Shown here: piece after piece, positions 1-42,491 of the stretch | How positions within the stretch are numbered: the stretch's first letter is position 1 | Layout: each line of letters starts with the position of its first letter | Source: a virus | IMG/VR virus record: IMGVR_UViG_3300045988_020338 | Span: 1 to 42,491 of that record | Strand: one strand, 5' to 3' | DNA length: 42,491 nucleotides | Program-made: the position numbers and the translations under genes | Notes under the pieces: model-generated | What the model saw: the letters and a program-made list of their open reading frames with translations, nothing else | What the model was told of the DNA's origin: nothing | Databases searched by the model: none

Positions 1-55
1 CAGAACTGAGCAAAGTCCATCTGCCAGAAGTTAGCGCCGAGGTTATGAATACCGC
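1..55. repeat. Terminal direct repeat, left copy (identical to 42437..42491). Assembly overlap of a circular or circularly permuted molecule.
   Basis: Bases 1-55 (CAGAACTGAGCAAAGTCCATCTGCCAGAAGTTAGCGCCGAGGTTATGAATACCGC) recur exactly as the last 55 bases. A minus-strand reading frame passes through the junction without interruption. Confidence 0.95.
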
Positions 56-5321: not shown

Positions 5322-7283
5322 TTAGTACAGCAGCACGGGCTTACCCGCTGCGCGTGTCATGTTGTTGATATTCTTTACGGTGCTGCGTGCGATCTCCTTA
5401 CCGTCGAGCTGGATAACGACCGTAGTCGTACCGTTGCCGGATTCCGACATAGCCTGTTTAAATGCTTCGACCATCGTTGCAAGCGGCGTTTCGATGTTCG
5501 TTCCGCTCTTCTGGTCGCCCAGTACGGCAAGAAATTCCTTGTTGGGTGGAATGACTGCGCCGGTTGCCAGACGCGGAAGATGTACTTCGGAAAGCGAGGA
5601 AAGATGCCCGCCGATGCTTTTACCGCCAACACCCGGAACCCAGCTTGGGACGGTAAACTTAATCGTGTTGATCTTGCTGATAAGCCAATTTAATCCCTTG
5701 ATAATGGCATTAACCGCGCTTTCGGCAATAATGACGATGCTGTTCCAGATGCCTTTAAATACCTTTTTGACACCACCCCATGCAGAATTCCAGTCACCAG
5801 TGAACACTCCCTTGATAAACTGGATAATACCGCCAAGGATGTTATCTTTAAGGTTTCTCGCAAACTCGGTCAGATTGCCAGTCAGCGCAAGTACAGCGGT
5901 AACTACCGTAGCAATTCCCGCAATCACAAGTGGGATGACGCTACCGGTCAAGAAGAAGAACCCCAGCCCCGTTGCCACAATGCCAGCAATCAATAACAGC
6001 GTATTTTGGAGATTTGCACCGTTATCACAAATGTCCTTAAACGCTGTGATAATCATTGCTGCGCCAGCCACTACAAGGCCGATGCCCGCCCCAACTTTGC
6101 CGAATGCGATTGCAAGCCCCACGGCAAGCGCCGCTGTGCCTGCAAGCATTTCGAGCAGATTCCCCCAGTTAACGCCGTTATTCCATGCGTCGGATAAGCC
6201 GTCCCACAGAAGAATCAATCCGCCGACCGCGATGAGGATACCGCCGAGTTTGGTTAGAATCTTTCCCAATTCTCCGGGAAGCGAACTGCCGATCTTCCAC
6301 AGTGCAAGCCCTGCGGCAATAAGCATGACTGCATCAGCGATTTTCTTTAAGCGGTCGCTGATGTCATCCATGTAGCTAAAGTCCGGAGTGATTGCGTCAG
6401 CGGATGCGCCACCGCCCGCATCGTTTGCGGTATCGGTGGAAATCTGGTTGATCTCATCAAACGCCGCAAGCTGGCTTGCCGCTTTCTTCGCGGCACTGCC
6501 CGTTCCCTTTAATGCGCTGGTTTCTTTGTTTAGCGCCTTTGCCGAGTTAGCAGTTGCCTTGACACTCTTGCCGGAGATAAGCGCTACAAGACGAGTGATC
6601 TGTGAGACTACTGCCGTGATAACTTTTACAAGCAGTGTAAAAGCGGGGACAATTACACTTACAAGAGGCTGTGCCAGCGTCAAAAGCGCTCCTTTAAGCT
6701 GCGCAATGGATTCTCTTGCATCGGAGTTTACCATTACGACATTTTTTACCCAGTCGCGCACTTTTGTTAATGCTTGGGTAATAACTGTAAAAACAAGTGC
6801 ACTTCGGACAACAGATTTTAAGCGCTGTCCAAATACTTTCATGGAATCTGCCGCCGCTTCGGTTGCATTGCGCAGTCCTGCGCCTTTGGCTCTGCCCTCG
6901 ATCTGCTGTGTTAGCTCGACTGCCTGCGTTTTCGCGTCGGAAATTTTATCGCCGGTTTTTTTGAGCTTTTCGTTGAGCTTATCAATGCTATTTGCAGTTT
7001 TATTAAATTCGCTTTGCAGCATTCGCACGCGCTCGGCCTGCTCGGACACGTCGATTTTCTCATACGTGCCTTTTGGCGCTGTGCGCATATCGGCAAGCAC
7101 CTGTTTTGCCGCATCCAGCTCTGCGCCAATGTTACGCAGCCGGTCTTCCATCGGCGTTTTCTGGTCGCCGAGCCGGTTGAACTCCTTTTGTAGGGATTCG
7201 ATATTGCTTTTTACTTTGTTCAACTCCTGATGGAGTTTTTTGTCGCTAATAGTCGCTTCAAATACGACTTCGCCGTCAGCCAT
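5322..7283 (-). CDS. Tail tape measure protein
   Basis: The track ORF 5322..7457 is trimmed to ATG 7283 (MADGEVVFEATISDKK), which has AAGGTGA upstream. The longer form would overlap the plus-strand gene at 7362. The 653-aa product has an N-terminal coiled coil, a long Gly/Ala/Ile/Leu-rich hydrophobic core and a conserved C-terminal part. It follows the chaperone genes. Confidence 0.9.
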   Translation of the reverse strand: MADGEVVFEATISDKKLHQELNKVKSNIESLQKEFNRLGDQKTPMEDRLRNIGAELDAAKQVLADMRTAPKGTYEKIDVSEQAERVRMLQSEFNKTANSIDKLNEKLKKTGDKISDAKTQAVELTQQIEGRAKGAGLRNATEAAADSMKVFGQRLKSVVRSALVFTVITQALTKVRDWVKNVVMVNSDARESIAQLKGALLTLAQPLVSVIVPAFTLLVKVITAVVSQITRLVALISGKSVKATANSAKALNKETSALKGTGSAAKKAASQLAAFDEINQISTDTANDAGGGASADAITPDFSYMDDISDRLKKIADAVMLIAAGLALWKIGSSLPGELGKILTKLGGILIAVGGLILLWDGLSDAWNNGVNWGNLLEMLAGTAALAVGLAIAFGKVGAGIGLVVAGAAMIITAFKDICDNGANLQNTLLLIAGIVATGLGFFFLTGSVIPLVIAGIATVVTAVLALTGNLTEFARNLKDNILGGIIQFIKGVFTGDWNSAWGGVKKVFKGIWNSIVIIAESAVNAIIKGLNWLISKINTIKFTVPSWVPGVGGKSIGGHLSSLSEVHLPRLATGAVIPPNKEFLAVLGDQKSGTNIETPLATMVEAFKQAMSESGNGTTTVVIQLDGKEIARSTVKNINNMTRAAGKPVLLY

Positions 7284-7361
7284 AATATCACCTTCTTGCT
7301 TTTTGGTTTTTTGCGTGATATCATCCAAGAAGCCATAAATAATGGCAAGGAGGAATGAAAA

Positions 7362-7940
7362 ATGGATAAGATGACTACTTGCAAGGTATGCGGGGCATCT
7401 ATCGCAAAATCCGCTACCACTTGCCCGCAGTGTGGAGCCAAGCAGAAAAAGCGCCACCCAGTGCTGGGGATTATCATTGCTATTTTCGGCATTTGCATGA
7501 TCGCCGCCGCATTAAACGACATGGGCGATGCCCCTGGCGCGGAGAAACAAACATTTGGCGTTGGAGAAACCTCCGAGTTAAATGGGATCAGCGTAAAGTT
7601 TGATTCCTGCAACGAAAGCAATGGATCGCAGTTCAACACGCCTGATGATGGAAATGTGTTTCTGCTTTGCGAATTCTCAATTGATAACCAGTCGGATAAA
7701 GATATTGCCGTTAGTTCTATCGCATCGTTCAACGCCTATGTTGATGACTACTCGACAAATCTGAGCATTTCAGCCACCATCGCAACCGATAAAACTCAGT
7801 TGGACGGGGCTATTGCTGCCGGTAAGAAAATGACCGGCGTTGTCGGATACGAAGTCCCCAAAGACTGGAAAGAAATTGAAATTCGCTTCACTCCCGACTT
7901 TTGGTCTGGAAACGAAATTACATTCATTGCAGACAAGTAA
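7362..7940 (+). CDS. Zn-ribbon / single-TM / DUF4352-like extracytoplasmic protein (moron on the opposite strand)
   Basis: 192 aa. Order of elements: CKVCGASIAKSATTCPQCG zinc ribbon, TM helix (VLGIIIAIFGICMIAAAL), then a beta-rich domain with DUF4352-type signature (GNVFLLCEFSIDNQSDKDIAVSS...GVVGYEVPKDWKEIEIRF). AAGGAGGA lies 7 nt upstream of the ATG. This is the only plus-strand gene in the structural region. Confidence 0.8.
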   Translation: MDKMTTCKVCGASIAKSATTCPQCGAKQKKRHPVLGIIIAIFGICMIAAALNDMGDAPGAEKQTFGVGETSELNGISVKFDSCNESNGSQFNTPDDGNVFLLCEFSIDNQSDKDIAVSSIASFNAYVDDYSTNLSISATIATDKTQLDGAIAAGKKMTGVVGYEVPKDWKEIEIRFTPDFWSGNEITFIADK

Positions 7941-7947
7941 CCACCCT

Positions 7948-7980
7948 CGCCCGATGCTATTTTGCGTCGGGCGTTTTTTT
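7948..7980 (+). terminator. Rho-independent terminator of the plus-strand moron
   Basis: CGCCCGA (7948-7954) pairs with TCGGGCG (7967-7973) and is followed by T7 (7974-7980). It begins 8 nt after the stop at 7940. Confidence 0.7.
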
Positions 7981-8526
7981 GCCCAACCATGCATTTATCG
8001 TGTCGTTTTCTTCTTCCGTCATCGGCTTTTTTAGATCGACAAGCCGCCTGTTTTCTCGGTAAAATTCTCGATCCGATTTGTCAAGCGTTTTCCCCTTTGC
8101 TTTTAAGCTGCGAATCCGCACGATGTTTGCAAACAGGCAATCCCCGATTTCGTAGTATGCAGATACAAATGACCACCAGTGAAAATAAGGCATTGCGCGC
8201 ACTTCATGTCCCACAACGTGGTTGATGGGAGCCACGATGTATTGAAAGTCTTGCTCCCAGTCCATCAACTTAGGGCGCTTTTGATTATCGCCATCGTCAC
8301 CGCAGTCGAGAAACCATGTCATCTGCTTCACAGCTTCTGGAATGTGCTCATCCGGCATTTTTAAGAAGTCCGGATAAAAGATATCCAGAGCTGCAAGCGC
8401 TTTCTGCTCGTTGGTCAGATCGGCCGCAGCAAATACCGCTAGCACGTCCAGTGCCGCGCGATAGTCTGAGCGGATTTTATAGTCAACGCCGCAGACGTTC
8501 AGCGACGTTGGAAGATCGTACATCAT
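7957..8526 (-). CDS. Phage Gp15-family protein (tail assembly chaperone position)
   Basis: 189 aa. MMYDLPTSLNVCGVDYKIRSDYRAALDVLAVF...EQKALAALDIFYPDF matches my memory of the Gp15 family. ATGA overlap with the upstream gene. It lies directly upstream of the tape measure gene. Confidence 0.75.
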   Translation of the reverse strand: MMYDLPTSLNVCGVDYKIRSDYRAALDVLAVFAAADLTNEQKALAALDIFYPDFLKMPDEHIPEAVKQMTWFLDCGDDGDNQKRPKLMDWEQDFQYIVAPINHVVGHEVRAMPYFHWWSFVSAYYEIGDCLFANIVRIRSLKAKGKTLDKSDREFYRENRRLVDLKKPMTEEENDTINAWLGKKTPDAK

Positions 8527-18443: not shown

Positions 18444-19086
18444 TCGTCACCACCTCTCTTGTCACAATTTTGCTACCAGCCCCCACCCCTTGGCCTTACA
18501 TAGCAGACTTTACCCGCCCCGAAGGGCTTCAACGCCGCACTCAAAGCAGCGGCTCTCCTCTTTTGGTACGGCATTGCAGTCCTGTCCTGCTTTAGCGATT
18601 CGGGAAAGTCCCCGTCACTCGCTGTGGTCTCCCCTTACGGGACACCTATGCCGCATATGTCCGCAACGAGCCGGTCGGCGCTTCGGCATCTCCAACAGCA
18701 TGAGCATTTGCATCCTCACGTCCGGGCGGCAGCTGCCTGTTCTGCCCTTCGTTGCGGTGCTGCCGTCTAAAACTGCTATCACCATGCGCAATCACGGTGA
18801 CGTGCTGGAACTCCGGTAGCATAGTAGTTTGTAAGCATGTCCCCGCTGGGCCACATCGTTGAGAGGTGCGCGGGGTCCTGTGCCGCATGAAAGGTGCGAC
18901 CTCTCGGCCCTGATCGTGGGCTGCATCGTGCGTGCGGCATGTTGCGGGGGGCGGTGTGAAAAGATGAAAAGCACCGCGCCCCGCTATGCCGCAGGAGGTG
19001 GACGCCATAAATGAGAGAACCGCAAAGGCTTTTACACCTCTGCGATTCTATTATCTCATAAGCAAATGGCTTTTTAAGGCCAACTT
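18444..19086 (-). ncRNA. Candidate large structured non-coding RNA (class unknown)
   Basis: 643 nt between the late activator and terS, with no RBS-led ORF. Helices found by eye:
- 18661-18669/18749-18757: 9 bp, perfect.
- 18934-18940/18986-18992 plus 18944-18956/18972-18984: 7+13 bp with one mismatch.
- 18861-18867/18899-18905, nested in 18848-18852/18906-18910.
A C(UUCG)G tetraloop (18516-18527) and a GUAA loop (18632-18641) exist only in the minus sense. Confidence 0.45.
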
Positions 19087-31839: not shown

Positions 31840-31886
31840 TTTACGCTTTGCACAATTTTTTCTTTCTCCTTTGTGAGGGTTTGTCA

Positions 31887-32699
31887 ATGGCGCTATTTGA
31901 TAAGCAAATAAAAAAATACGTCGAAGAAAACTTTTCTGAAAAAGAAAAAGCACTCGCAGAAACCGAGCGCTCTGTCCAGCGGCATTTTGCTAAAAGCCGC
32001 GAATATAGAATTATGCTGCAAGATTATCAGAAGGAATTGCGTGAGCGTGATAGAGCCATTTCTGAAAAAGAAGCCAAACTATCTAAACGCAAAGAGGATT
32101 TGGACGAATTCGAATCCACATTAAAGGCGCGAGTAAAAGAAGATGTTGTGCGAGAGGCCAAAGAAGAAAAAGCTACGTTAAAAGCGGATTCTATAAAGCT
32201 GCAAGAGGAAATAAAATCCTTATCGGCGAAAAAAGCCGGCCTTATGGCTGCGGAATACAAAATTATAGACTGGGTCTCTCGGATGGAGAAAAAAGAAAGC
32301 GAAGTATTCGACGAAATACTTGCCGACGCAAACAAATTCCAAAAGTTCAAACTGTCTATTGATGGGTATGAGTTTGAAAGCTACGTTGCCGATCTGCTTA
32401 TAAAAAACGGCTATGAGAAGGTCGAGGTAACAAAAAAGTCGCAGGATTTCGGAGCAGATATTCTTGCCGAGAAAACAGATGTGCGATATGCGTTTCAATG
32501 CAAATACTACTCAGGACAAGTTGGAATTGAAGCGGTGCAGCAAATTTACGCAGCAAAAGAGCATTACGATTCTCATGTTGCAGTTGTCGTTACAAACAGC
32601 GTGTATACAAAAGCCGCTAAGATTTTGGCAGAAGAATTAAACGTAGTCCTGTGGGACTGCGAAGACCTCACGGTTTTGTCACAAAACAAGGATATGTAA
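31887..32699 (+). CDS. Coiled-coil protein with C-terminal Mrr-cat-type (PD-(D/E)xK) restriction endonuclease domain
   Basis: Trimmed to ATG 31887 (GAGGG upstream). 270 aa. The N-terminal ~150 aa are a Lys/Glu heptad-rich coiled coil. The C-terminus is GYEFESYVADLLIKNGYEKVEVTKKSQDFGADILAEK...YAFQCKYYSGQVGIEAVQQIY...VAVVVTNSVYTKAAKILAEELNVVLWDCEDL. Confidence 0.75.
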   Translation: MALFDKQIKKYVEENFSEKEKALAETERSVQRHFAKSREYRIMLQDYQKELRERDRAISEKEAKLSKRKEDLDEFESTLKARVKEDVVREAKEEKATLKADSIKLQEEIKSLSAKKAGLMAAEYKIIDWVSRMEKKESEVFDEILADANKFQKFKLSIDGYEFESYVADLLIKNGYEKVEVTKKSQDFGADILAEKTDVRYAFQCKYYSGQVGIEAVQQIYAAKEHYDSHVAVVVTNSVYTKAAKILAEELNVVLWDCEDLTVLSQNKDM

Positions 32700-34306: not shown

Positions 34307-34326
34307 ATTGATTGGAGGGGGATTTG

Positions 34327-35625
34327 ATGAGAGCGGCACTATATATCCGCGTTTCCAGCGAGGAACAAGCGCGGCATGGTCTATCATTACAAGAGCAGCG
34401 GGATGCGCTGGCAAGATATGCCAAAGCGAATAAAATGACCGTGGTGGGCATATATGAGGACGCGGGCATATCCGCGCGAAAGCCGTACAAAAAGCGCCCC
34501 GCGCTCCTGCGGCTGCTGGACGATTGCAAGGCGGGAAAGGTGGACACGATCCTGTTTATTAAACTCGACCGATGGTTTCGAAATGTTGCTGGATATTACG
34601 ATGTGCAGACGCAGCTCGACCGGTACGGCGTAACGTGGCAAGCGACGGAAGAGGACTACGAGACGCGCACCGCATCAGGGCGATTGAAGGTCAATATCAT
34701 GTTATCCGTCGCGCAGGACGAAGCCGACCGCACGAGCGAGCGAATCAAATTTATCAACGATGGCAAAAGGGCAAAAGGGCAACCGGCAGGCTCAAAAGCG
34801 CCTTTAGGGTATATTATCAAGGACAGGCAATACCAAATTGATAACGACACAGCAGACGCGGCGCGAGATATGTTTGCCGCATATATCCGCCTGAAAAGCG
34901 TCCTTGCTGTAAAACGATATATGCTCGACACATGGGGAATTGACCGAGCATATAACAAGTATGTCAACTATTTCCACAACCGGCTTTACATTGGCGAGGT
35001 GTACGGCATCGAAAACGCTTGCCCCTCGTTGGTGAGCAAGCAAGACTTTGACCTTGTAACTGATGTTTCCCGCCAGCGGTCACAGCGCTGTGCCGGAGTT
35101 GATGTGGATCGCGTGTATCTGTTCTCGGGGCTTTTGCATTGCAAGGAATGCGGAAGGACAATGCAGTCGGAAACCGCAAAACAGATATATACATATTACC
35201 GTTGCCGGACGCGGATGCTTGACAACTCCGCTTGCCTGCACATGAAGAGGATCAGGGAAGACTTGCTGGAAGAATACCTATTGCACGAGCTTGTTGGGAT
35301 TGCGGAGCGGAACAATCGGTATTACAAAAAGGCCAAAAAAAAGCCCACGCAGAGCGCGGACGCGATACGAAAGAAAATAGGCAAGCTGAAAACGCTGTAT
35401 CTAAATGATTTGATCGAGCTGGACGATTACAAGGCAGAATACGCGAGCCTGAAAAAGTCCCTTGAGACCGTGGAAGAAAAGCCAAAGACAGACCTTGATG
35501 CCTTGAGAAACGGGCTGGGCGAATATGATACATACTCGAGGGAAGAAAAAAAGGAATTCTGGACGCGCTTCATCAGGAGGATTGATGCAGACAACGATGG
35601 CGCGTTTTTCGTAACGCCGCGTTAG
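34327..35625 (+). CDS. int: Large serine recombinase (integrase)
   Basis: Trimmed to ATG 34327 (GGAGGGGG upstream). MRAALYIRVSSEEQARHGLSLQEQRDAL...GISARKPYKKRPALLRLL...VDTILFIKLDRWFRN is the resolvase catalytic domain. It is followed by the recombinase domain and a Zn ribbon (CKECGRTM...YYRC). Confidence 0.9.
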   Translation: MRAALYIRVSSEEQARHGLSLQEQRDALARYAKANKMTVVGIYEDAGISARKPYKKRPALLRLLDDCKAGKVDTILFIKLDRWFRNVAGYYDVQTQLDRYGVTWQATEEDYETRTASGRLKVNIMLSVAQDEADRTSERIKFINDGKRAKGQPAGSKAPLGYIIKDRQYQIDNDTADAARDMFAAYIRLKSVLAVKRYMLDTWGIDRAYNKYVNYFHNRLYIGEVYGIENACPSLVSKQDFDLVTDVSRQRSQRCAGVDVDRVYLFSGLLHCKECGRTMQSETAKQIYTYYRCRTRMLDNSACLHMKRIREDLLEEYLLHELVGIAERNNRYYKKAKKKPTQSADAIRKKIGKLKTLYLNDLIELDDYKAEYASLKKSLETVEEKPKTDLDALRNGLGEYDTYSREEKKEFWTRFIRRIDADNDGAFFVTPR

Positions 35626-35669
35626 GTATATTTTACTTTCACGTTCGCAAAGGTAAAGTATGCCTAAAA

Positions 35670-35698
35670 GATACCCCCGCCTTTGTGACGGGGGTATC
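35670..35698. terminator. Bidirectional GC hairpin between convergent int and the cargo cluster (also an attP-core candidate)
   Basis: GATACCCCCG (35670-35679) / CGGGGGTATC (35689-35698) with a 9-nt loop. T-runs follow on both strands (CTCATTTTT on plus, CTTTTAGG on minus). Confidence 0.65.
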
Positions 35699-35699
35699 C

Positions 35700-36020
35700 T
35701 CATTTTTCGAGCTTCCGCATGACGCTATTATAGACGCGCTCGTTTACAATTTTCAAGCTGTCCATCAGTTCGTCCATGATCTCCCACGCTTTGTCCGGCG
35801 AAACATCTGCCACTGCGCGCAAAAAATCGCTGTCGCCGTATGTTTCGACGTTGACCGGCGCGGGTGCTGCGGAGTATGCCATTGGCAAAGCCATCTCTCT
35901 GCTGCCGCTTTGCTGGTCACGGATGGCATACAGCACGGCAAGGCGCTCATAGTTTGTCCAACTCGATTCCTCTGTTTCAAGGCGAGCTATCCAGCGATTG
36001 ACCTCATTCTCGTCGACCAT
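35700..36020 (-). CDS. Hypothetical protein (cargo cluster, last gene)
   Basis: 106 aa, AAGGGGGTG upstream. Confidence 0.6.
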   Translation of the reverse strand: MVDENEVNRWIARLETEESSWTNYERLAVLYAIRDQQSGSREMALPMAYSAAPAPVNVETYGDSDFLRAVADVSPDKAWEIMDELMDSLKIVNERVYNSVMRKLEK

Positions 36021-36035
36021 AGGGGCGCACCCCCT

Positions 36036-36443
36036 TTAGCCCTCAATCGTGTCCATGCAGCGCTGGATGGCTCTGCGGATGCTTTCATCGTCGGCGTTGT
36101 CCAACATTTCCTGCAACTGGCGTTTCATGTTGTCGATGCCGCCGTCACGGGAATAGTGGCCGCGCACATAGTGCGTACCGCGTCTCGCGTTGGACATATC
36201 ACGGTCATAAACGCCGCGCATACCCGACTGCCAGTCTCCGCCGCGGGAATAGCGGCGAGAATAGTCTTCATCGCGGGAATAGCCGTCGTCCTCCAACATC
36301 TCAATCTTATCGATGTTCTTGATGGTGTCCGTCAGCTTGTGCGCAATTTCGAGATCGCCCGCGCCAAGCTCGCCCTTACGTGCCAGCTCGTCGAGTTCGT
36401 CGCACAGCATATTGCGCAGATCATACATTGCTTTCTTGCTCAT
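36036..36443 (-). CDS. Hypothetical protein with Arg/Tyr/Asp/Gly-rich linker (cargo cluster)
   Basis: Trimmed to ATG 36443 (AGGAGC-ATG-GAC-ATG). MSKKAMYDLRNMLCDELDELARKGELGAGDLEIAHKLTDTIKNIDKIEMLEDDGYSRDEDYSRRYSRGGDW... Confidence 0.55.
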   Translation of the reverse strand: MSKKAMYDLRNMLCDELDELARKGELGAGDLEIAHKLTDTIKNIDKIEMLEDDGYSRDEDYSRRYSRGGDWQSGMRGVYDRDMSNARRGTHYVRGHYSRDGGIDNMKRQLQEMLDNADDESIRRAIQRCMDTIEG

Positions 36444-36456
36444 GTCCATGCTCCTT

Positions 36457-36879
36457 TCATGCGATTCTCTCAACCGTGAGATTGCTGTTAGCAAAATTCA
36501 CGGCCTGAGCGCTTGTGTTTTTCATCGCGACAGTTACGCAGCAGCCCTTCGGGACGCTCACTTGCGCGCTGACATACACGTTGAAATAGTTCTCCACCGC
36601 AGCAGGGGTAACGGTCGCCGTAGCGCTGTTGAGTGCCTCGCCGTTGACGGCAAGCGCCGCCGTGATGGCCTCGACCGTGCCCCCGGTAGGGATGGCGATG
36701 TTCCCACCATAAGAAATTTTGTAGAGAGCGCGGCACTGGTTAGTCAGCCCGCGCAAAGTTACCAAACCGGCCCCGGCACGGTGAACGATACACGGCTTGC
36801 TATTGACCGCCGTTTCGGTCAGTGGGACGTTCTGTCCGGCAGAGACCAAAGCAATGATAGGATTACTAAACTCAGCCAT
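36457..36879 (-). CDS. Beta-rich protein, possibly TNF/C1q-like (BclA C-terminal-like) jelly roll
   Basis: Trimmed to ATG 36879. 140 aa. ...LVTLRGLTNQCRALYKISYGGNIAIPTGGTVEAITAALAVNGEALNSATATVT...VTVAMKNTSAQAVNFANSNLTVERIA resembles the alternating pattern of BclA-C-type domains. This rests on memory only. Confidence 0.5.
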   Translation of the reverse strand: MAEFSNPIIALVSAGQNVPLTETAVNSKPCIVHRAGAGLVTLRGLTNQCRALYKISYGGNIAIPTGGTVEAITAALAVNGEALNSATATVTPAAVENYFNVYVSAQVSVPKGCCVTVAMKNTSAQAVNFANSNLTVERIA

Positions 36880-36886
36880 ACTGGTA

Positions 36887-37084
36887 TCACTCCTTCCTCT
36901 GATTTGCCCCAAAAGGGGCAAACGCACCATTTGCAATCATTTCCGCGTAGCTGGGTGCAAATAATTCGTCCGCTTTACGTAAAAGATCGGCATAATTGCT
37001 AAGCTCGTACATGCTCATTTTACTCTTGTCCAGAGTTGCAATGTGATCGACAAATTCCTGCTTGAGTTCGTCAACCGTTTTCAC
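36887..37084 (-). CDS. Small helical hypothetical protein (cargo cluster)
   Basis: 65-aa ORF. Confidence 0.5.
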   Translation of the reverse strand: MKTVDELKQEFVDHIATLDKSKMSMYELSNYADLLRKADELFAPSYAEMIANGAFAPFGANQRKE

Positions 37085-37236
37085 AAAATCATTCCTTCCT
37101 AAAGGGGTCGATTTCGACCCGGTTAAAATACAGCGGCGGAGCTATTGCCCCGCCGCGTTGTTGTAGTATCGGCACGGGGCCGACCATTTTGTTGACGTCA
37201 ACAAAATCATCAACAAAAAGCTATGCTATGCAGTTG

Positions 37237-38049
37237 TCAGCAGCCGCAACCGTTGCAGCTGTACTGATTTCCACATCCAGTGTACTGGTACGGAGCAGGG
37301 ACGCTGAACGAAGGAACGGGACGCGGATTGTAATACGCGAACTGTGCGCTAACATAGTTGCGCATATCAAGCGTCTGAGCAGACTGAGAGGCCGCGAGGT
37401 CAGCGGCAAAAAGACGCTGGTTCTGCTCGGCAATCTTGGCGTCCTTTGCCGCGATCTCCTGGGCGGTAAGGCGCTGCTCAATGCTGCGGAAACCGCAGTT
37501 CATGGCATCAATGATGTCACGGGTGTTCCCCTGAATCAGGTTGCGGGTCTCGCTCCCCTGTGTGGCGAGGTTGTAGTTGATCCCCTGAATCGCTTCGCGA
37601 AGATCGCAGCAGCAGCCGGCCATTTGTGACTGCAGGGCGCTAAACTGCTGCATAAACGCCATCTGCTGGTTACACCGGGCAACTTCCGCCTGTGAGAACC
37701 CGCTGGTCACGGTCTGCGTCACCCCGGCAAAGCCGTTGAGCATCCCGGTATTCATGGCGTAAAAGCCATCACAGATGCCTTGCTGGGTAATATCGCTCTT
37801 GCGCTCAATCGTGGACGCCGCGCTGTCAATCTGGCGCTGGAGAGTAGCAAAATCGCTGGCGAGGACGTAATTGTCCATAGCGCCACCGCCACCTCCCCAA
37901 CCGTTATTGCCCCAGCCTCCGCACACGGCAAAGATCAGGAACAACACAATGAGCCAAACACCGCTGTCACCGCCCCAGCCGAAACCGCCACCGCTGTTGG
38001 TAGGCGCAACCGGCATAGTCATCATGGGAGCACCGTCGGAAAGAGACAT
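37237..38049 (-). CDS. Gly/Trp-rich membrane protein with CCC motif and Cys-rich C-terminus
   Basis: 270 aa, AAGGAG upstream. GGGFGWGGDSGVWLIVLFLIFAVCGGWGNNGWGGGGG; central ...QMAGCCCDLREAIQGINYN...; C-terminus YQYTGCGNQYSCNGCGC. Confidence 0.7.
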   Translation of the reverse strand: MSLSDGAPMMTMPVAPTNSGGGFGWGGDSGVWLIVLFLIFAVCGGWGNNGWGGGGGAMDNYVLASDFATLQRQIDSAASTIERKSDITQQGICDGFYAMNTGMLNGFAGVTQTVTSGFSQAEVARCNQQMAFMQQFSALQSQMAGCCCDLREAIQGINYNLATQGSETRNLIQGNTRDIIDAMNCGFRSIEQRLTAQEIAAKDAKIAEQNQRLFAADLAASQSAQTLDMRNYVSAQFAYYNPRPVPSFSVPAPYQYTGCGNQYSCNGCGC

Positions 38050-38109
38050 AAAATCACTCCTTAAAAAAATTTATCAAATCGTGGCCACGATGTTGATTTG
38101 TGTTGATAA

Positions 38110-38316
38110 TTACTGCATCAGGCTTTGAAACTGCTTCGCCATCTGCTGTAGCTGGTTGAGCTGCGCCTGCGAGAGTTTGCCGCTTTGCAAGAGCTTTTCG
38201 ACCTCCGCTTTGGGGTCACCATGAAAATTTGCCTTGAATTGCTGGAACTGCTGCATCATCTGCATGAAGCCGTTCCCGCCGCCGAGCGCACCAAAAAAGG
38301 GATTATTCATCGTCAT
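38110..38316 (-). CDS. Small Gln/Met-rich protein
   Basis: 68 aa (or 66 from ATG 38310). NPFFGALGGGNGFMQMMQQFQQFKANFHGDPKAEVEKLLQSGKLSQAQLNQLQQMAKQFQSLMQ. Confidence 0.55.
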   Translation of the reverse strand: MTMNNPFFGALGGGNGFMQMMQQFQQFKANFHGDPKAEVEKLLQSGKLSQAQLNQLQQMAKQFQSLMQ

Positions 38317-38734
38317 CGTCCTCCTTGCGCTTCTTTTTGCCCTTTATTTCGCCCACAAGCGCCGCCAGCGCATCAAACTCCTCACGGGTGACAAACTTAT
38401 CATCCATTTTTTTAGTATCATGAGGTTTGTTTTCAGTTTCTTCCGTGTAATTAAACGTCCTCATTGGAATAGGCGTGCCGCTTGCGTCTCGCTCCTTGAT
38501 GTGGAAAACCATCGAGTTTGTTTCAAAGATAATTACTCGAGAATTTGGTGCGACCATAAACCCGTTTGCTTCTTCTTTTCCTCCGCTAATCCATACAACG
38601 CTTGTCTGCATTTGCTGCGGTTGAGCCGTTTGCGCAGGCATTTGTGGCTGCATCATCTGCTGTTGCCGCATCTGCATGAGATTGTCCGGCATCGGCTGAC
38701 CGTAATAGGGATTAAAATAAGGATTGTAAGCCAT
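38303..38734 (-). CDS. Protein with Gln/Met/Pro-rich N-terminus and small beta domain
   Basis: 143 aa, GGAGGAATAAGAA upstream. MAYNPYFNPYYGQPMPDNLMQMRQQQMMQPQMPAQTAQPQQMQ, then VVWISGGKEEANGFMVAPNSRVIIFE..., then a Lys/Asp-rich tail. Confidence 0.65.
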   Translation of the reverse strand: MAYNPYFNPYYGQPMPDNLMQMRQQQMMQPQMPAQTAQPQQMQTSVVWISGGKEEANGFMVAPNSRVIIFETNSMVFHIKERDASGTPIPMRTFNYTEETENKPHDTKKMDDKFVTREEFDALAALVGEIKGKKKRKEDDDDE

Positions 38735-38737
38735 TTC

Positions 38738-39121
38738 TTATTCCTCCGTTTCTTTTACCCAGTAATAAAGCGGGATTTCGTTCTCGCTGTTCCAACTGTC
38801 GTAAATTACACCATCCTGCACGCAGACCACATGACCGGAGAGGGCGAGAATATACGTTCCACGCGGGTGCTCGTCGGCAAACTTACCAACCGTGTAGCAG
38901 TCGGGGCAGGTGTCCGGCATGATATAGCGCCGATACCCAAGCGATCGCAGATACGCGCCCCAACAGGCATTTGCATTGGGAAGATCGCCGTCTAAGTATC
39001 CCTGTATGCACAGAGCCAAATAAACTTCGCCCCAGTCCTTCCCCGTCGCCTTGCAGATCGCGCGCACGGTGCAATCGGACACATTACGCCCAGTGGGATT
39101 TGGATTGAAATAGCTATACAT
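38738..39121 (-). CDS. Putative papain-like cysteine peptidase-fold protein
   Basis: Trimmed to ATG 39121. MYSYFNPNPTGRNVSDCTVRAICKATGKDWGEVY...YTVGKFADEHPRGTYILALSGHVVCVQDGVIYDSWNS. The conserved DC...GH...D spacing is reminiscent of Cys/His peptidases. This rests on memory only. Confidence 0.5.
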   Translation of the reverse strand: MYSYFNPNPTGRNVSDCTVRAICKATGKDWGEVYLALCIQGYLDGDLPNANACWGAYLRSLGYRRYIMPDTCPDCYTVGKFADEHPRGTYILALSGHVVCVQDGVIYDSWNSENEIPLYYWVKETEE

Positions 39122-39236
39122 GGAAAAGCTCCGCAAAATAGACGTAAGTGCGCAGCTCGTCGGGGTCTGGAAACAGTGTCAAAATGTCCATTGCCATCTG
39201 CTCGGTAAATCCCAAAGCTAAAAGTCGGTCGTACAT
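39114..39236 (-). CDS. Small hypothetical protein (40 aa)
   Basis: Not in the ORF track. ATG 39236 with GGGGGTG upstream. MYDRLLALGFTEQMAMDILTLFPDPDELRTYVYFAELFHV*. 8-nt overlap with the next gene. Confidence 0.4.
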   Translation of the reverse strand: MYDRLLALGFTEQMAMDILTLFPDPDELRTYVYFAELFHV

Positions 39237-39267
39237 CGCCACACCCCCTTTGTTGTTTATATGGTAC

Positions 39268-39295
39268 AAAAAAACGGGCGCTCAAAAGCGCCCGT
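39268..39295 (-). terminator. Rho-independent terminator (minus strand) after the sigma-4-like gene
   Basis: ACGGGCGC (39274-39281) / GCGCCCGT (39288-39295), 6-nt loop. On the minus strand it is followed by U7 (39274-39268). Confidence 0.75.
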
Positions 39296-39415
39296 AAAGT
39301 GTATGAAAAGTGCGTCGAAAATCGTCGAACGATTCTGCTTGTCTTTCCACATGAAACATGATATTTTAATTTTGCAGGTTCTTCCCGGCCTACTTTTTAC
39401 ACAAAAGAAATTGCC

Positions 39416-39676
39416 TCACCATTTGGTGGGGCAATTTCTTTTTTCGTGTTGGTCTGATGAAATTTTGTGGTACGCCCGCTGCCGGTATTTTTTCACCGCG
39501 TCAACGGACAAGTTATGCTCTATTGCGACCTGTACGCAGCTTTTCCGCCGCACATCGCACTCGATGATGCACGCCGTCTCGTCAGGCGGCAATTCGAGGG
39601 ATAAGATATATTCGATGGCTCGCCGGGGAGCCATCGCGGATAACTCCGCCCGGATACGCTTGTGCTGACTGTTCAT
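39416..39676 (-). CDS. Sigma-70 region-4-like small HTH protein
   Basis: 86 aa. AIEYILSLELPPDETACIIECDVRRKSCVQVAIEHNLSVDAVKKYRQRAYHKI resembles a region-4 / YlxM-type HTH. Confidence 0.55.
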   Translation of the reverse strand: MNSQHKRIRAELSAMAPRRAIEYILSLELPPDETACIIECDVRRKSCVQVAIEHNLSVDAVKKYRQRAYHKISSDQHEKRNCPTKW

Positions 39677-39760: not shown

Positions 39761-40336
39761 TTACTTAATTACGGCGAGTTTTCTAATGAGGTCATCGCCG
39801 TACTGATATTTTTCAAGGTAGTCCATTGTGCCGTCCGTCAGCCCCGCGCGCTTTTGCAGTATCGCGCGGTAGCTCTCTTCGTACTTCGGGCGATATGCGC
39901 CCACCACGAGCGAGAGCTTGCGCTTGCGGCGATACACGCCGTCTCCGTTGGACTGGCTGCCCGTGTTGCCGTTCGACGTGTTGCCCTCGATGGCCGTCAC
40001 GTACTGGCCGCCTACGCTCTCGCAGATGCCCGTATGGTCGGTCTTGACCTTCGTGTTGGGAAAGTCGTAGATCAGCACGTCGCCCGGTTGATAGCCCTTT
40101 GTGACCCACTGACCGTGCGCTTTCGCGTAGTTCATCAGCTCGCCGCAGCTCGCGGTCTTCCCGCCGCCGTAGAAGAGCCGCTTATCCACCTGCTGGAAGC
40201 ACCACCATACAAATTGCATACACCAGTACACGCCGTTCAGGCCGTAGGCTTTGCCATACTTCTGACGGTTACCCGGCTGCTCCACCGTGCCAATCTCCTT
40301 GCGTGCGATGGCAAGGATGTCAGTTGCCCGCGCCAT
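39761..40336 (-). CDS. CHAP-domain endolysin
   Basis: Trimmed to ATG 40336 (GGGAGGTG upstream). ...NRQKYGKAYGLNGVYWCMQFVWWCF... (catalytic Cys) and ...DHTGICESVGGQYVTAIEGNTS (His) form the CHAP signature. Follows the holins. Confidence 0.85.
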   Translation of the reverse strand: MARATDILAIARKEIGTVEQPGNRQKYGKAYGLNGVYWCMQFVWWCFQQVDKRLFYGGGKTASCGELMNYAKAHGQWVTKGYQPGDVLIYDFPNTKVKTDHTGICESVGGQYVTAIEGNTSNGNTGSQSNGDGVYRRKRKLSLVVGAYRPKYEESYRAILQKRAGLTDGTMDYLEKYQYGDDLIRKLAVIK

Positions 40337-40544
40337 TGTCTTCACCTCCCACCGCGTCCTGCACCTTCTGGCTCTGCGTGCCGAAGTAAAACGCGATGAT
40401 GACCGCGTAGATGGTCATAAAGTCTTGACTGATGTTGCTCGTGACCGCCATGTACGCGAATACGCCAGTCAGCACCAGTGTCACGATGCTCTTGACGCTC
40501 ATGAGGTTTGCGATACGCTTGATGATCCTTTCGTTCATAGTCAT
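40320..40544 (-). CDS. Holin (two TM helices)
   Basis: 74 aa, ATGA overlap. MSVKSIVTLVLTGVFAYMAV...MTIYAVIIAFYFG. Confidence 0.7.
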   Translation of the reverse strand: MTMNERIIKRIANLMSVKSIVTLVLTGVFAYMAVTSNISQDFMTIYAVIIAFYFGTQSQKVQDAVGGEDNGAGN

Positions 40545-41874: not shown

Positions 41875-42491
41875 TTATTTTGGCGGGCGTTCCTGGAGGC
41901 GACAGCCGATGCTGTCGTTCGAGTTCCACGCTCTGTCGCAGTCGACGTAGAACGGACCGTGACCCTGGTACTGGTTATAGTCACCGCCATGGCGCAGGCA
42001 CGGGAAACTACCGCCGAAATTCCAGTAATCCGGGACATAGGTCGTTGTACTGCCGTTTGCAGCACTCGGATACAGCGCCCACTCAAGACCACTTGCCGTC
42101 GGGATGGCAAAGTCGCTCGGATAACCGCCCGTGGGCCTACCGACAAGCGTACCGTTCGCGTTGTCGCTGAAGTTGTTGGGATTGCTGATGACATTCAGGC
42201 CGTTATTGTTGTAATAGCAGCCATCCATCCAGTCATAAACATTGTCCCACCAGCCTTCGATGTTGCGATACTGCGTGAAGCCGTAGCTGTCGCGGCTTGC
42301 TGCGGTCGTACCGGTGTGATAGCCCATCGCGTCGGTCTGACCGTTGTTCATCTTGGAGCCGCTCGTAGAGCAGCCTCGGCCGATGCGCTCGCCATTCCAG
42401 TCGGCAAACTCCACGAGGAACAGCATATTCACATACCAGAACTGAGCAAAGTCCATCTGCCAGAAGTTAGCGCCGAGGTTATGAATACCGC
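41875..42491 (-). CDS. Tail fibre / receptor-binding protein, C-terminal part (continuation of 1..1220; the last 55 nt duplicate bases 1-55)
   Basis: ...NIEGWWDNVYDWMDGCYYNNNG...GGSFPCLRHGGDYNQYQGHGPFYV... resembles the C-type-lectin/FGE-like fold motif (GNVWEW-type). In frame with the hand-translated N-terminal part across the junction. Confidence 0.75.
   Translation of the reverse strand, partial: GIHNLGANFWQMDFAQFWYVNMLFLVEFADWNGERIGRGCSTSGSKMNNGQTDAMGYHTGTTAASRDSYGFTQYRNIEGWWDNVYDWMDGCYYNNNGLNVISNPNNFSDNANGTLVGRPTGGYPSDFAIPTASGLEWALYPSAANGSTTTYVPDYWNFGGSFPCLRHGGDYNQYQGHGPFYVDCDRAWNSNDSIGCRLQERPPK
42437..42491. repeat. Terminal direct repeat, right copy (identical to 1..55)
   Basis: Exact 55/55 identity with the first 55 bases. 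Confidence 0.95.

Follow-up and report, generated by a model that had tools for sequence, protein, structure and literature searches.

The virus genome recorded in IMG/VR as IMGVR_UViG_3300045988_020338, analysed here over its whole length (positions 1-42,491, the window in what follows), carries behind its lysis genes a run of nine minus-strand open reading frames (ORFs) at 35700-39236, which we call g1 to g9, preceded by a short gene, g0, which, to judge from the sequences, is the tenth gene of the same unit. As far as its predicted products allow a comparison, this ten-gene combination, the module, has no counterpart among the phage modules, defence systems, lysis systems and spore structures described so far; it is an autonomous accessory cassette at the junction of the lysis genes and the attachment (att) site. 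The folds of g7 and g0, the layout of g2 and the accessory slot itself are of known kinds, and there is a small chance that the module as a whole is something categorically new. A preliminary description, made from the letters alone, had listed the nine ORFs, whose positions, lengths and compositions are as it gave them: g3 has a Gln/Met/Pro-rich N-terminus, g4 is Gln/Met-rich, the last two genes, noted as Arg-Tyr-rich and acidic, have an Arg/Ser/Tyr/Asp-rich centre (g8) and an acidic composition (g9), and the terminator placed upstream of the cluster is present as a hairpin followed by a T-run. Other loci fetched for comparison carry L-numbers.

The gene array and its setting

Between g1 and g9 the gaps or overlaps amount to 15 nt or less throughout, except at g4/g5 (60 nt) and g5/g6 (152 nt), so that the tight packing first described holds for most junctions and fails at these two. 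In every gene that was compared with its homologues, that is, all of the nine but g6, nonsynonymous divergence (dN) lies well below synonymous divergence (dS); g6 could not be assessed in this manner because its only close homologues are near-identical (dS ≤0.08). All nine predicted ORFs can be taken as confirmed, genuine genes.

Six of the nine (g2, g3, g4, g5, g7 and g8) match PHROG families, none of which has an assigned function. Scans of all ten proteins against Pfam and NCBIfam gave nothing significant apart from g0, the PADLOC models gave zero matches to any of the ten, and sequence and profile searches of the PDB with g2, g3, g5, g7 and g8 returned coiled-coil noise at most (HA2, ATP synthase b, topoisomerase I linker). 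That the set has no described function, as had been supposed, is in agreement with these scans, and literature searches found no description of the cluster. At the level of RNA, no Rfam family reached its threshold in the module region, a sub-threshold PhrS match there being the terminator only, and the leader of g1 is not unusually structured (z -1.4). None of the nine module proteins has a signal peptide, and hydropathy and sequence analysis place a membrane segment in g5 only.

Table 1. Features of the module and its surroundings (window positions)
Feature	Position	Strand	Description
Endolysin	39761-40345	-	Late gene
g0	39416-39676	-	86 amino acids (aa); sigma-70-region-4-type helix-turn-helix (HTH) protein (predicted); last gene after the endolysin
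T1	39403-39442		Hairpin with 18-bp stem, overlapping the g0 stop codon
T2	39264-39295	-	GC-rich inverted repeat ACGGGCGC-TTTTGA-GCGCCCGT (39274-39295), then T7; terminator-like hairpin
-10-like box	39256-39266	-	TACCAT / TATAAA, invariant TAnnnT, 20-30 nt before the g1 ATG
g1	39114-39236	-	40-aa helical peptide, UBA-like
g2	38738-39121	-	127 aa from ATG (132 aa from an upstream TTG); papain-like Cys-His-Asp layout
g3	38303-38734	-	143 aa; Gln/Met/Pro/Tyr-rich disordered N-terminus
g4	38110-38316	-	68-aa Gln/Met-rich helical protein
g5	37237-38049	-	270-aa single-pass membrane protein
g5-g6 spacer	37133-37215	-	20-bp perfect palindrome TTTTGTTGACGTCAACAAAA (~37196-37215), then hairpins including a terminator-like one (37133-37156)
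g6	36887-37084	-	65-aa helical protein, GTG start; lineage-specific addition
g7	36457-36879	-	140-aa stand-alone TNF/C1q-type jelly roll, ExsFA/BxpB/BclA-C type (predicted)
g8	36036-36443	-	135 aa; helical ends around an Arg/Ser/Tyr/Gly/Asp-rich low-complexity centre
g9	35700-36020	-	106-aa acidic helical protein; last gene of the module
Hairpin after g9	35663-35699	-	GATACCCCCG...CGGGGGTATC + TTTT, terminator-like; read from the sequence, unlisted by the terminator scan
attP of serine integrase	35624-35665		Imperfect inverted repeat abutting the integrase stop codon; crossover near 35641-35650
Large serine integrase	34312-35625	+

A 55-bp direct repeat at the two ends of the window (1-55 and 42437-42491) indicates that it represents a phage genome that is complete and circular, with 42,436 unique bases. 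The late genes are on the minus strand and encode, besides the endolysin, a tail protein (phrog_5302), a CBM-like protein, a 'hemolysin' of XhlA type and a small holin-like protein; the serine integrase stands on the plus strand in one block with an XRE-type regulator gene, and the module occupies the gap between these two blocks. In the prophage L005 an identity of 98.5% with the window extends from g6 to ~35643, beyond which there is host DNA, and because this break falls inside the imperfect inverted repeat at the end of the integrase gene, the repeat is identified as attP. The slot between the lysis genes and attP, already pointed out in the preliminary description, is in this way established by a prophage-host junction. 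In L003 the module ends at the 3′ end of a tRNA, where a tyrosine integrase has its att site, and in L005 and L033 host genes come after g9. The latter locus is the prophage of the cultured Vescimonas fastidiosa MM35 (NZ_AP023416.1, ~250.9-254.5 kb), which has g0-g5 and g7-g9 and, after them, the host genes ldh, miaB and mutL. In every Clostridia locus the module is on the late-gene strand, directly behind the holin and endolysin genes, and it is always the final block before att.

Spread and exchange of the module

The order g2-g3-g4-g5-(g6)-g7-g8-g9 is kept in more than 20 independent loci, even where amino-acid identity has fallen to 31-47%, the profile searches of the module genes having covered 30 fetched loci. 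Without g6, it is found in Butyrivibrio virus Ceridwen (31-47% identity), in Dulem virus 33 and in many contigs assigned to Oscillospiraceae/Clostridiales, and rumen contigs have the same gene order. The exact g7 protein is present on 358 contigs; six loci around it hold arrays of 40, 127, ~145, 66, ~240, 65, 140, 135 and 106 aa, which lie behind three different types of endolysin and before tyrosine integrases or directly against host genes. The g6 gene is confined to the closest relatives, at 98-100% identity (exact protein on 343 contigs). The preliminary description had proposed to abandon the idea of a set if the genes did not co-occur outside this genome and were not expressed; the nine do recur together, in the same order at more than 20 other loci, and what has to be amended is the membership, since g0 also belongs to the set and g6 does so in the closest relatives only. 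The predicted operon appears to be common to thousands of gut Clostridia phages, and no copies outside phage or prophage DNA were seen in the loci examined.

The DNA of the g6-g9 block is 95-98.5% identical between phages that are otherwise 78-92% identical or unrelated, with different lysins and integrases, and in modules that are otherwise near-identical the middle of g3 (38396-38645) and most of g5 have been swapped for divergent alleles. Judging by such mosaics, gut Clostridia phages exchange the module as a cassette. Genes of HNH or homing endonucleases have settled inside it in several lineages (L001 9127-9921, L002 7280-7831), between g7 and g8 in Ceridwen (phrog_374) and between g4 and g5 in Dulem virus 33, which suggests that DNA is shared among co-infecting phages; further loci (L013, L014, L017) have gaps of ~1 kb within the module, and in L026 g5 is split.

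Other genes are found at the edges of the module. In L005 (6793-7690), L006 (6628-7525) and L014 a divergent pair, consisting of a 142-aa protein and a 151-aa XRE-HTH protein, separates g0 from g1; its promoter, TTGACA-17-TATATT, contains the perfect palindrome ATACCATATATGGTAT, and the pair looks like a toxin-antitoxin-type insert. After g9, L006 (11189-15015) carries a gene for an Rce1/CPBP-like membrane protease and then, in the opposite orientation, an AAA_5 gene with a 583-aa partner, a pair that is possibly McrBC-like; these genes of L006 suggest that the prophage end is a defence hotspot.

Predicted products and the region upstream of g1

The g7 protein belongs to phrog_20016 (3e-54) and to a family of at least 7000-8000 clusters at 90% identity. 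Structure prediction with AlphaFold2 (AF2) and Foldseek comparison covered g7 and g2. The g7 model (predicted local distance difference test, pLDDT, 90.2) has 11 strands in a jelly-roll fold, and ExsFA/BxpB, BclA-C and F-BclA stand at the top of its PDB matches (9h3d, 7r1m, 8d02, 1wck, 9h38; E ~4e-6, probability 1.00, template-modelling (TM) score 0.66-0.75); next come EDA/TNF domains, C1q domains and some knobs from phage fibres. Among the viral models of BFVD it meets many free-standing proteins of 130-145 aa from uncultured phages, some of them labelled 'BclA protein'. The jelly roll that had been suspected from the letters is confirmed in the predicted structure, as a stand-alone TNF/C1q-type domain of the ExsFA/BxpB/BclA-C type. 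With ExsFA/BxpB and the C-terminal domain of BclA it shares a jelly roll of ~140 aa and, with ExsFA, the stand-alone form without a signal peptide; it differs from them in being phage-encoded, in an identity of 10-17%, and in the lack of a match to Pfam BclA_C, neither this family nor C1q being matched at E up to 0.1 in Pfam and NCBIfam, nor any PDB entry by sequence. The same fold occurs in a viral setting in the TNF-like knobs of phages (the short tail fibre of cyanophage A-1(L), the central spike of phi812, tail-fibre models in BFVD), which, in contrast, are the C-terminal tips of long proteins of the tail module, whereas g7 is free-standing and belongs to a separate operon downstream of the lysis genes.

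The g2 protein (phrog_3754, 6e-36) has the invariant residues N11, N13, P14, C22, H102 and D113, both in a set of 12 sequences and in 92 homologues at 49-95% identity. In its AF2 model (pLDDT 92.8) Cys22 opens the helix 22-31, and His102 and Asp113 lie on adjacent strands (102-107 and 110-113); the Cys/His/Asp order with the cysteine at the N-terminus of a helix is the layout of papain-like (clan CA) enzymes. Foldseek against the PDB gave nothing significant (best E 0.76), the weak matches being deubiquitinases (TssM, Josephin-2, tegument deubiquitinase) and Tae4; there is no Pfam match, the PDB profile search was empty, and no significant similarity to a known clan CA member was found. From the modelled layout g2 may thus be called a minimal papain-like Cys-His-Asp enzyme, of protease or transglutaminase type, at the level of the fold only. 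The first impression of a 'DC...GH' peptidase-like protein was right in its invariant Cys, His and Asp and their papain-like arrangement, but no significant match places g2 with C39 or any other known peptidases. With C39 peptidases, Josephin-type deubiquitinases and transglutaminases it has in common the order Asn/Cys/His/Asp, the helix-borne cysteine and the neighbouring strands with His and Asp; none of them is as short as g2 (127 aa), which has no significant match to them in sequence or structure. As a processor of bacteriocins g2 finds no support, as there is no C39 match and, unlike in C39-type systems, neither an ABC transporter nor a double-glycine precursor is evident with it, and the GG motifs in g4 and g5 appear, by eye, to be off the leader consensus. 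A bacteriocin or RiPP (ribosomally synthesized and post-translationally modified peptide) cluster was rejected for its lack of transporter, modifying enzyme and leader.

The g2 family also occurs without the other module genes, in Lak megaphages, in Geobacillus phage GBK2 and in Tsamsa-like phages of Bacillus, where an ocr-like gene is close by; no g1-like partner was found beside g2 in the Bacillus and Geobacillus phages. At least 1000 contigs carry g1 in exactly this sequence, and its name in NCBI TPA records is 'UBA-like domain protein'. In L001, L002 and L022 candidate divergent g1-like peptides precede g2; they were recognized by eye, through their location and a motif in common, and escaped the g1 profile.

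The g5 protein (phrog_16490, 1e-45), the core member of the module, whose family numbers 1175 clusters at 50% identity, has a hydrophobic segment at residues 29-47 (hydropathy 2.04). Its flanks are without positive charge and the N-terminal tail is net negative, so the short tail would probably face out, with the large, Cys-bearing helical domain in. Throughout the family the Gly/Trp-rich flanks, the motifs CCC(E/D)xR, TRDII..QNA and AASQ.AQN, a Pro-rich stretch and a C-terminal GCGC tail are kept (alignment A3), and the membrane segment, CC(C) motif and GCGC tail that had been picked out in this one protein prove to be properties of the family. No Pfam or PDB match was obtained, and a Pfam scan of 65 diverse homologues gave scattered coiled-coil matches only. 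Like the spanins (Rz/Rz1) and other post-endolysin lysis factors, g5 is encoded beside holin and endolysin and combines a membrane segment at its N-terminus with a helical domain, conserved cysteines and a Pro-rich C-terminus; unlike them, it is without homology to them or a lipoprotein partner, its Clostridia hosts are monoderm and have no outer membrane, and its family extends to an archaeal virus.

Homologues of g5 without other module genes are found in crAss-like Suoliviridae, in the cultured, plaque-isolated Bacteroides phage C3_41T2LP and in a virus of Methanomassiliicoccales (archaea). In the crAss-like cr52_1 the homologue lies among tail and virion genes, in the archaeal virus vir335 it adjoins a phrog_5302 tail protein, and in C3_41T2LP it is among replication genes. 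Only g5 is common to the module and cr52_1: when g7 and g8 were compared as profiles with the neighbours of g5 in cr52_1, nothing matched. One of these neighbours, gp22, joins a DUF7841 domain to an Arg/Ser/Tyr/Asp-rich tail, and, read with genetic code 11, annotated genes beside the cr52_1 homologue (L029 3379-3993 and 6077-6643) are interrupted by seven in-frame stops, suggestive of recoded stop codons in this phage.

The remaining products are of low complexity or helical. Conserved in g3 (phrog_21718; alignment A8) are an N-terminus rich in aromatic residues, Gln and Pro, a small beta domain in which Lys80 is invariant, a helix, and a tail that is Lys-rich and acidic; g4 (phrog_22984) has 21% Gln and the name 'DUF2680' in NCBI TPA records; both carry Met/Gln-rich helices. 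The g8 protein (phrog_28802, alignment A6) has no PDB match.

A g0-type protein of 65-86 aa is encoded upstream of the module in almost all lineages, the most divergent ones included. Homologues or analogues of g0 stand directly upstream in L001-L004, L007-L011, L013, L017, L022, L023, L026 and L033, and only the divergent pair already mentioned separates g0 from g1 in L005, L006 and L014. The window copy matches Sigma70_r4_2 with an E value of 1.9e-4 (21.4 bits against the Pfam cutoff of 25.7); of the g0-type proteins tested in eight lineages, six match Sigma70_r4, mostly weakly, and one has a weak match to Mor, the copy of L004 alone (32.6 bits) exceeding the Pfam gathering cutoff. The hairpin T1, at the end of g0, looks like a bidirectional terminator. 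The layout that follows is conserved: T2 stays at the same place in L003, L005, L006, L009, L013 and L033, its changes there being compensatory, and the TAnnnT box is invariant in alignment A2 (columns T205, A206 and T210) and recurs in L015, L016, L023 and L033. We infer that the box may act as a promoter, and that the T2 region could combine the terminator of the late transcript with a promoter that has no -35 element and depends on an activator, T2 being possibly also a candidate dyad for the binding of g0. Such an arrangement recalls the small activators of the Mu Mor/C type and the sigma-region-4 type, where an HTH protein like that of g0, 65-86 aa, precedes a -35-less promoter-like site with a dyad at -35; unlike these, most g0 matches are sub-threshold, and the candidate g0 dyad also resembles an intrinsic terminator. 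Direct repeats upstream of the hairpin were considered as activator boxes and dropped, being clear in L004 only and not detected in the window.

A possible role for the module

Several explanations can be offered for a block of genes that is so widespread and so constant in its order. The one that we tentatively prefer, at somewhat less than even confidence, is that the module is a late, self-contained operon, gated by g0, which builds a complex anchored by g5 on the inner face of the membrane. In such a scheme g0, as a sigma-region-4/Mor-like HTH protein, would be made at the end of the late/lysis transcript and would act on the inverted repeat found where a -35 element would be expected, ahead of the -10-like box, thereby switching on g1-g9 as a separate late transcript. 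All the products but g5 would remain in the cytoplasm, g5 would insert by its one N-terminal hydrophobic segment and serve as the anchor of the complex at the inner side of the membrane, trimers of g7, similar to those of ExsFA/BxpB, would be the docking hubs, and the low-complexity g3, g4 and g8, together with g9, would be flexible partners. The putative enzyme g2, paired with the UBA-like g1, could mature the complex by cleaving or cross-linking its Gln/Lys-rich partners. The complex would serve the lytic programme, either in lysis and release or in loading proteins onto virions, rather than decorate the surface of a lysogen.

This last point departs from the preliminary description, which had proposed a self-assembling envelope or surface layer on the lysogen, or else a condensate-forming system, and had read the locus as one of lysogenic conversion. 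A surface layer of that kind is unlikely, because the products, bar g5, which is the sole membrane protein, are cytoplasmic and none has a signal peptide. Lysogenic conversion is weakened by the presence of the module in Ceridwen and in rumen relatives without an integrase match, and of g5 in crAss-like, plaque-isolated and archaeal viruses, and it is because of this weakening that the g0-gated late operon is favoured. Ceridwen has been observed in the lytic cycle only, and its paper names no integrase; none is among its fetched genes, and in the contigs of the one-strand rumen relatives no integrase-family match lies within 7 kb of the module.

Against this preferred scheme there are, nevertheless, several considerations. 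The topology of g5 is based on charge bias alone, and the parts need not act together, because there are phages that carry g2 or g5 by itself. No acceptable -35 element precedes g1, and a promoter scan found nothing there; the upstream hairpins could be plain terminators, with the module transcribed by read-through of a leaky terminator from the late operon. Ceridwen, in which an XRE/antirepressor pair is retained, may once have been temperate, and the att-adjacent slot is a classic site for morons, which in relatives carries toxin-antitoxin-like and defence-like inserts.

The strongest of the alternatives, unlikely in our estimate yet far from negligible, is that the module is a moron operon expressed by the lysogen, whose products act on the host from within the membrane, for instance through superinfection exclusion or a block to DNA entry, the alleles of g3 and g5 setting the specificity. 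The module does adjoin attP at the prophage end (L005 junction ~35643) and is flanked by terminators, features in which it resembles the moron cassettes placed between lysin and att in phages of Gram-positive bacteria; it possibly has a promoter of its own in the TAnnnT box, the same hotspot holds toxin-antitoxin-like, CPBP/Abi-like and AAA_5 genes in relatives, and g3 and g5 are just the genes with divergent alleles in near-identical modules. Unlike those cassettes, however, it consists of ten genes in a fixed order over deeply diverged phages and has no toxin, defence or surface domains, and it does not seem confined to temperate phages, being found in some for which the annotated or fetched DNA contains no integrase, while g5 reaches into crAss-like and plaque-isolated phages. 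The patchy distribution of defence morons contrasts with a gene order conserved across whole phage lineages, and the silence of PADLOC and the lack of copies beyond phage and prophage DNA also count against it. A defence system as the principal reading was rejected for this lineage-wide conservation and the want of a PADLOC match.

A second alternative, which we consider quite improbable, would make the module a set of virion-associated proteins, with g7 as a TNF-like adhesin or decoration protein, g5 as a membrane-active protein that is ejected, and the low-complexity proteins as chaperones keeping g5 soluble until packaging. Phage fibres do commonly end in TNF-like knobs (8ke9, 9eul, together with g7's matches to tail fibres), g5 has homologues among the tail and virion genes of cr52_1 and beside the tail protein of vir335, and the Met/Gln-rich helices of g3 and g4 would suit chaperones. 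The module, however, is outside the morphogenesis block and behind terminators, g7 has neither stalk nor attachment domain, and the g5 homologue of C3_41T2LP is among genes of replication.

The likeness of g7 to exosporium proteins admits two further interpretations. To the first we assign a slim chance: the phage would make, in hosts that do not sporulate, a covalently stabilised, exosporium-like assembly of a new kind inside the cell, with g7 as its hub, g2 cross-linking or trimming g3, g4 and g8, the pan-gut-virome protein g5 as the tether and g0 as the activator. The second, very doubtful, goes back to the preliminary description and supposes an exosporium- or spore-coat-like layer in which g7, g5 with its cysteines, and g3 and g4, both Gln/Lys-rich, are cross-linked by a transglutaminase-like g2, either in the mother cell, on the spores of lysogens, or as another covalently cross-linked intracellular structure. 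The best structural matches of g7 are with exosporium proteins, the missing signal peptides would fit assembly in a mother cell, the Gln-rich N-terminus and the Lys-rich tail of g3 are conserved, and the papain-like triad is common to transglutaminases. Against it stand the lack of any match to a spore-coat or exosporium family in Pfam or NCBIfam, the homologues of g5 in Bacteroides and archaeal viruses, and the lack of a recognisable promoter for the sporulation factors sigma-E and sigma-K. Unlike the Bacillus exosporium, the module includes no collagen-like partner and no ExsY/CotY-type protein, and its hosts have no known exosporium; Butyrivibrio fibrisolvens and Vescimonas, which harbour it, are described as non-spore-forming, which also counts against a spore layer.

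Hardly any credence is given to an island of anti-defence or host takeover, in which g1 and g2 would be the halves of a split deconjugating enzyme (UBA plus protease), similar to a deubiquitinase and directed against ubiquitin-like or other defences of the host, and the rest unrelated small inhibitors held together by linkage: the g2 homologues near the ocr-like anti-restriction gene of Bacillus phage Tsamsa and ahead of the recombination genes of GBK2, the UBA-like name of g1, and deubiquitinases as the top, if in all cases non-significant, structural matches of g2 are in its favour, but these matches have E values of 0.76 or worse, an order of genes fixed over saturated divergence argues for coupling, and a membrane anchor and a jelly roll are atypical of anti-defence proteins.

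In phages of the human and animal gut few unassigned blocks of genes are as frequent as this cassette, and a role for it would annotate thousands of 'hypothetical' genes. It may reveal an unrecognised stage in the life cycle of phages of anaerobic Gram-positive hosts, be it a step after the endolysin, the loading of virions or an exclusion device, and it contains orphans of interest in themselves: a papain-like enzyme that is confidently folded in prediction and has no structural neighbour, and, in g5, a family common to phages of Firmicutes and Bacteroidota and to archaeal viruses. Two carriers can be cultured: the prophage-bearing V. fastidiosa MM35 and, with B. fibrisolvens DSM 3071 as host, the Butyrivibrio phage Ceridwen.

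Outside the module, two observations were made in the window. The minus strand contains a skipping-rope RNA (RF02924) at 18662-18756, with 45.6 bits against a gathering score of 36.7, and in the lysogeny region, on the plus strand (31848-32699), there is a gene for a 283-aa protein that matches restriction-endonuclease and RusA-like PHROG families.

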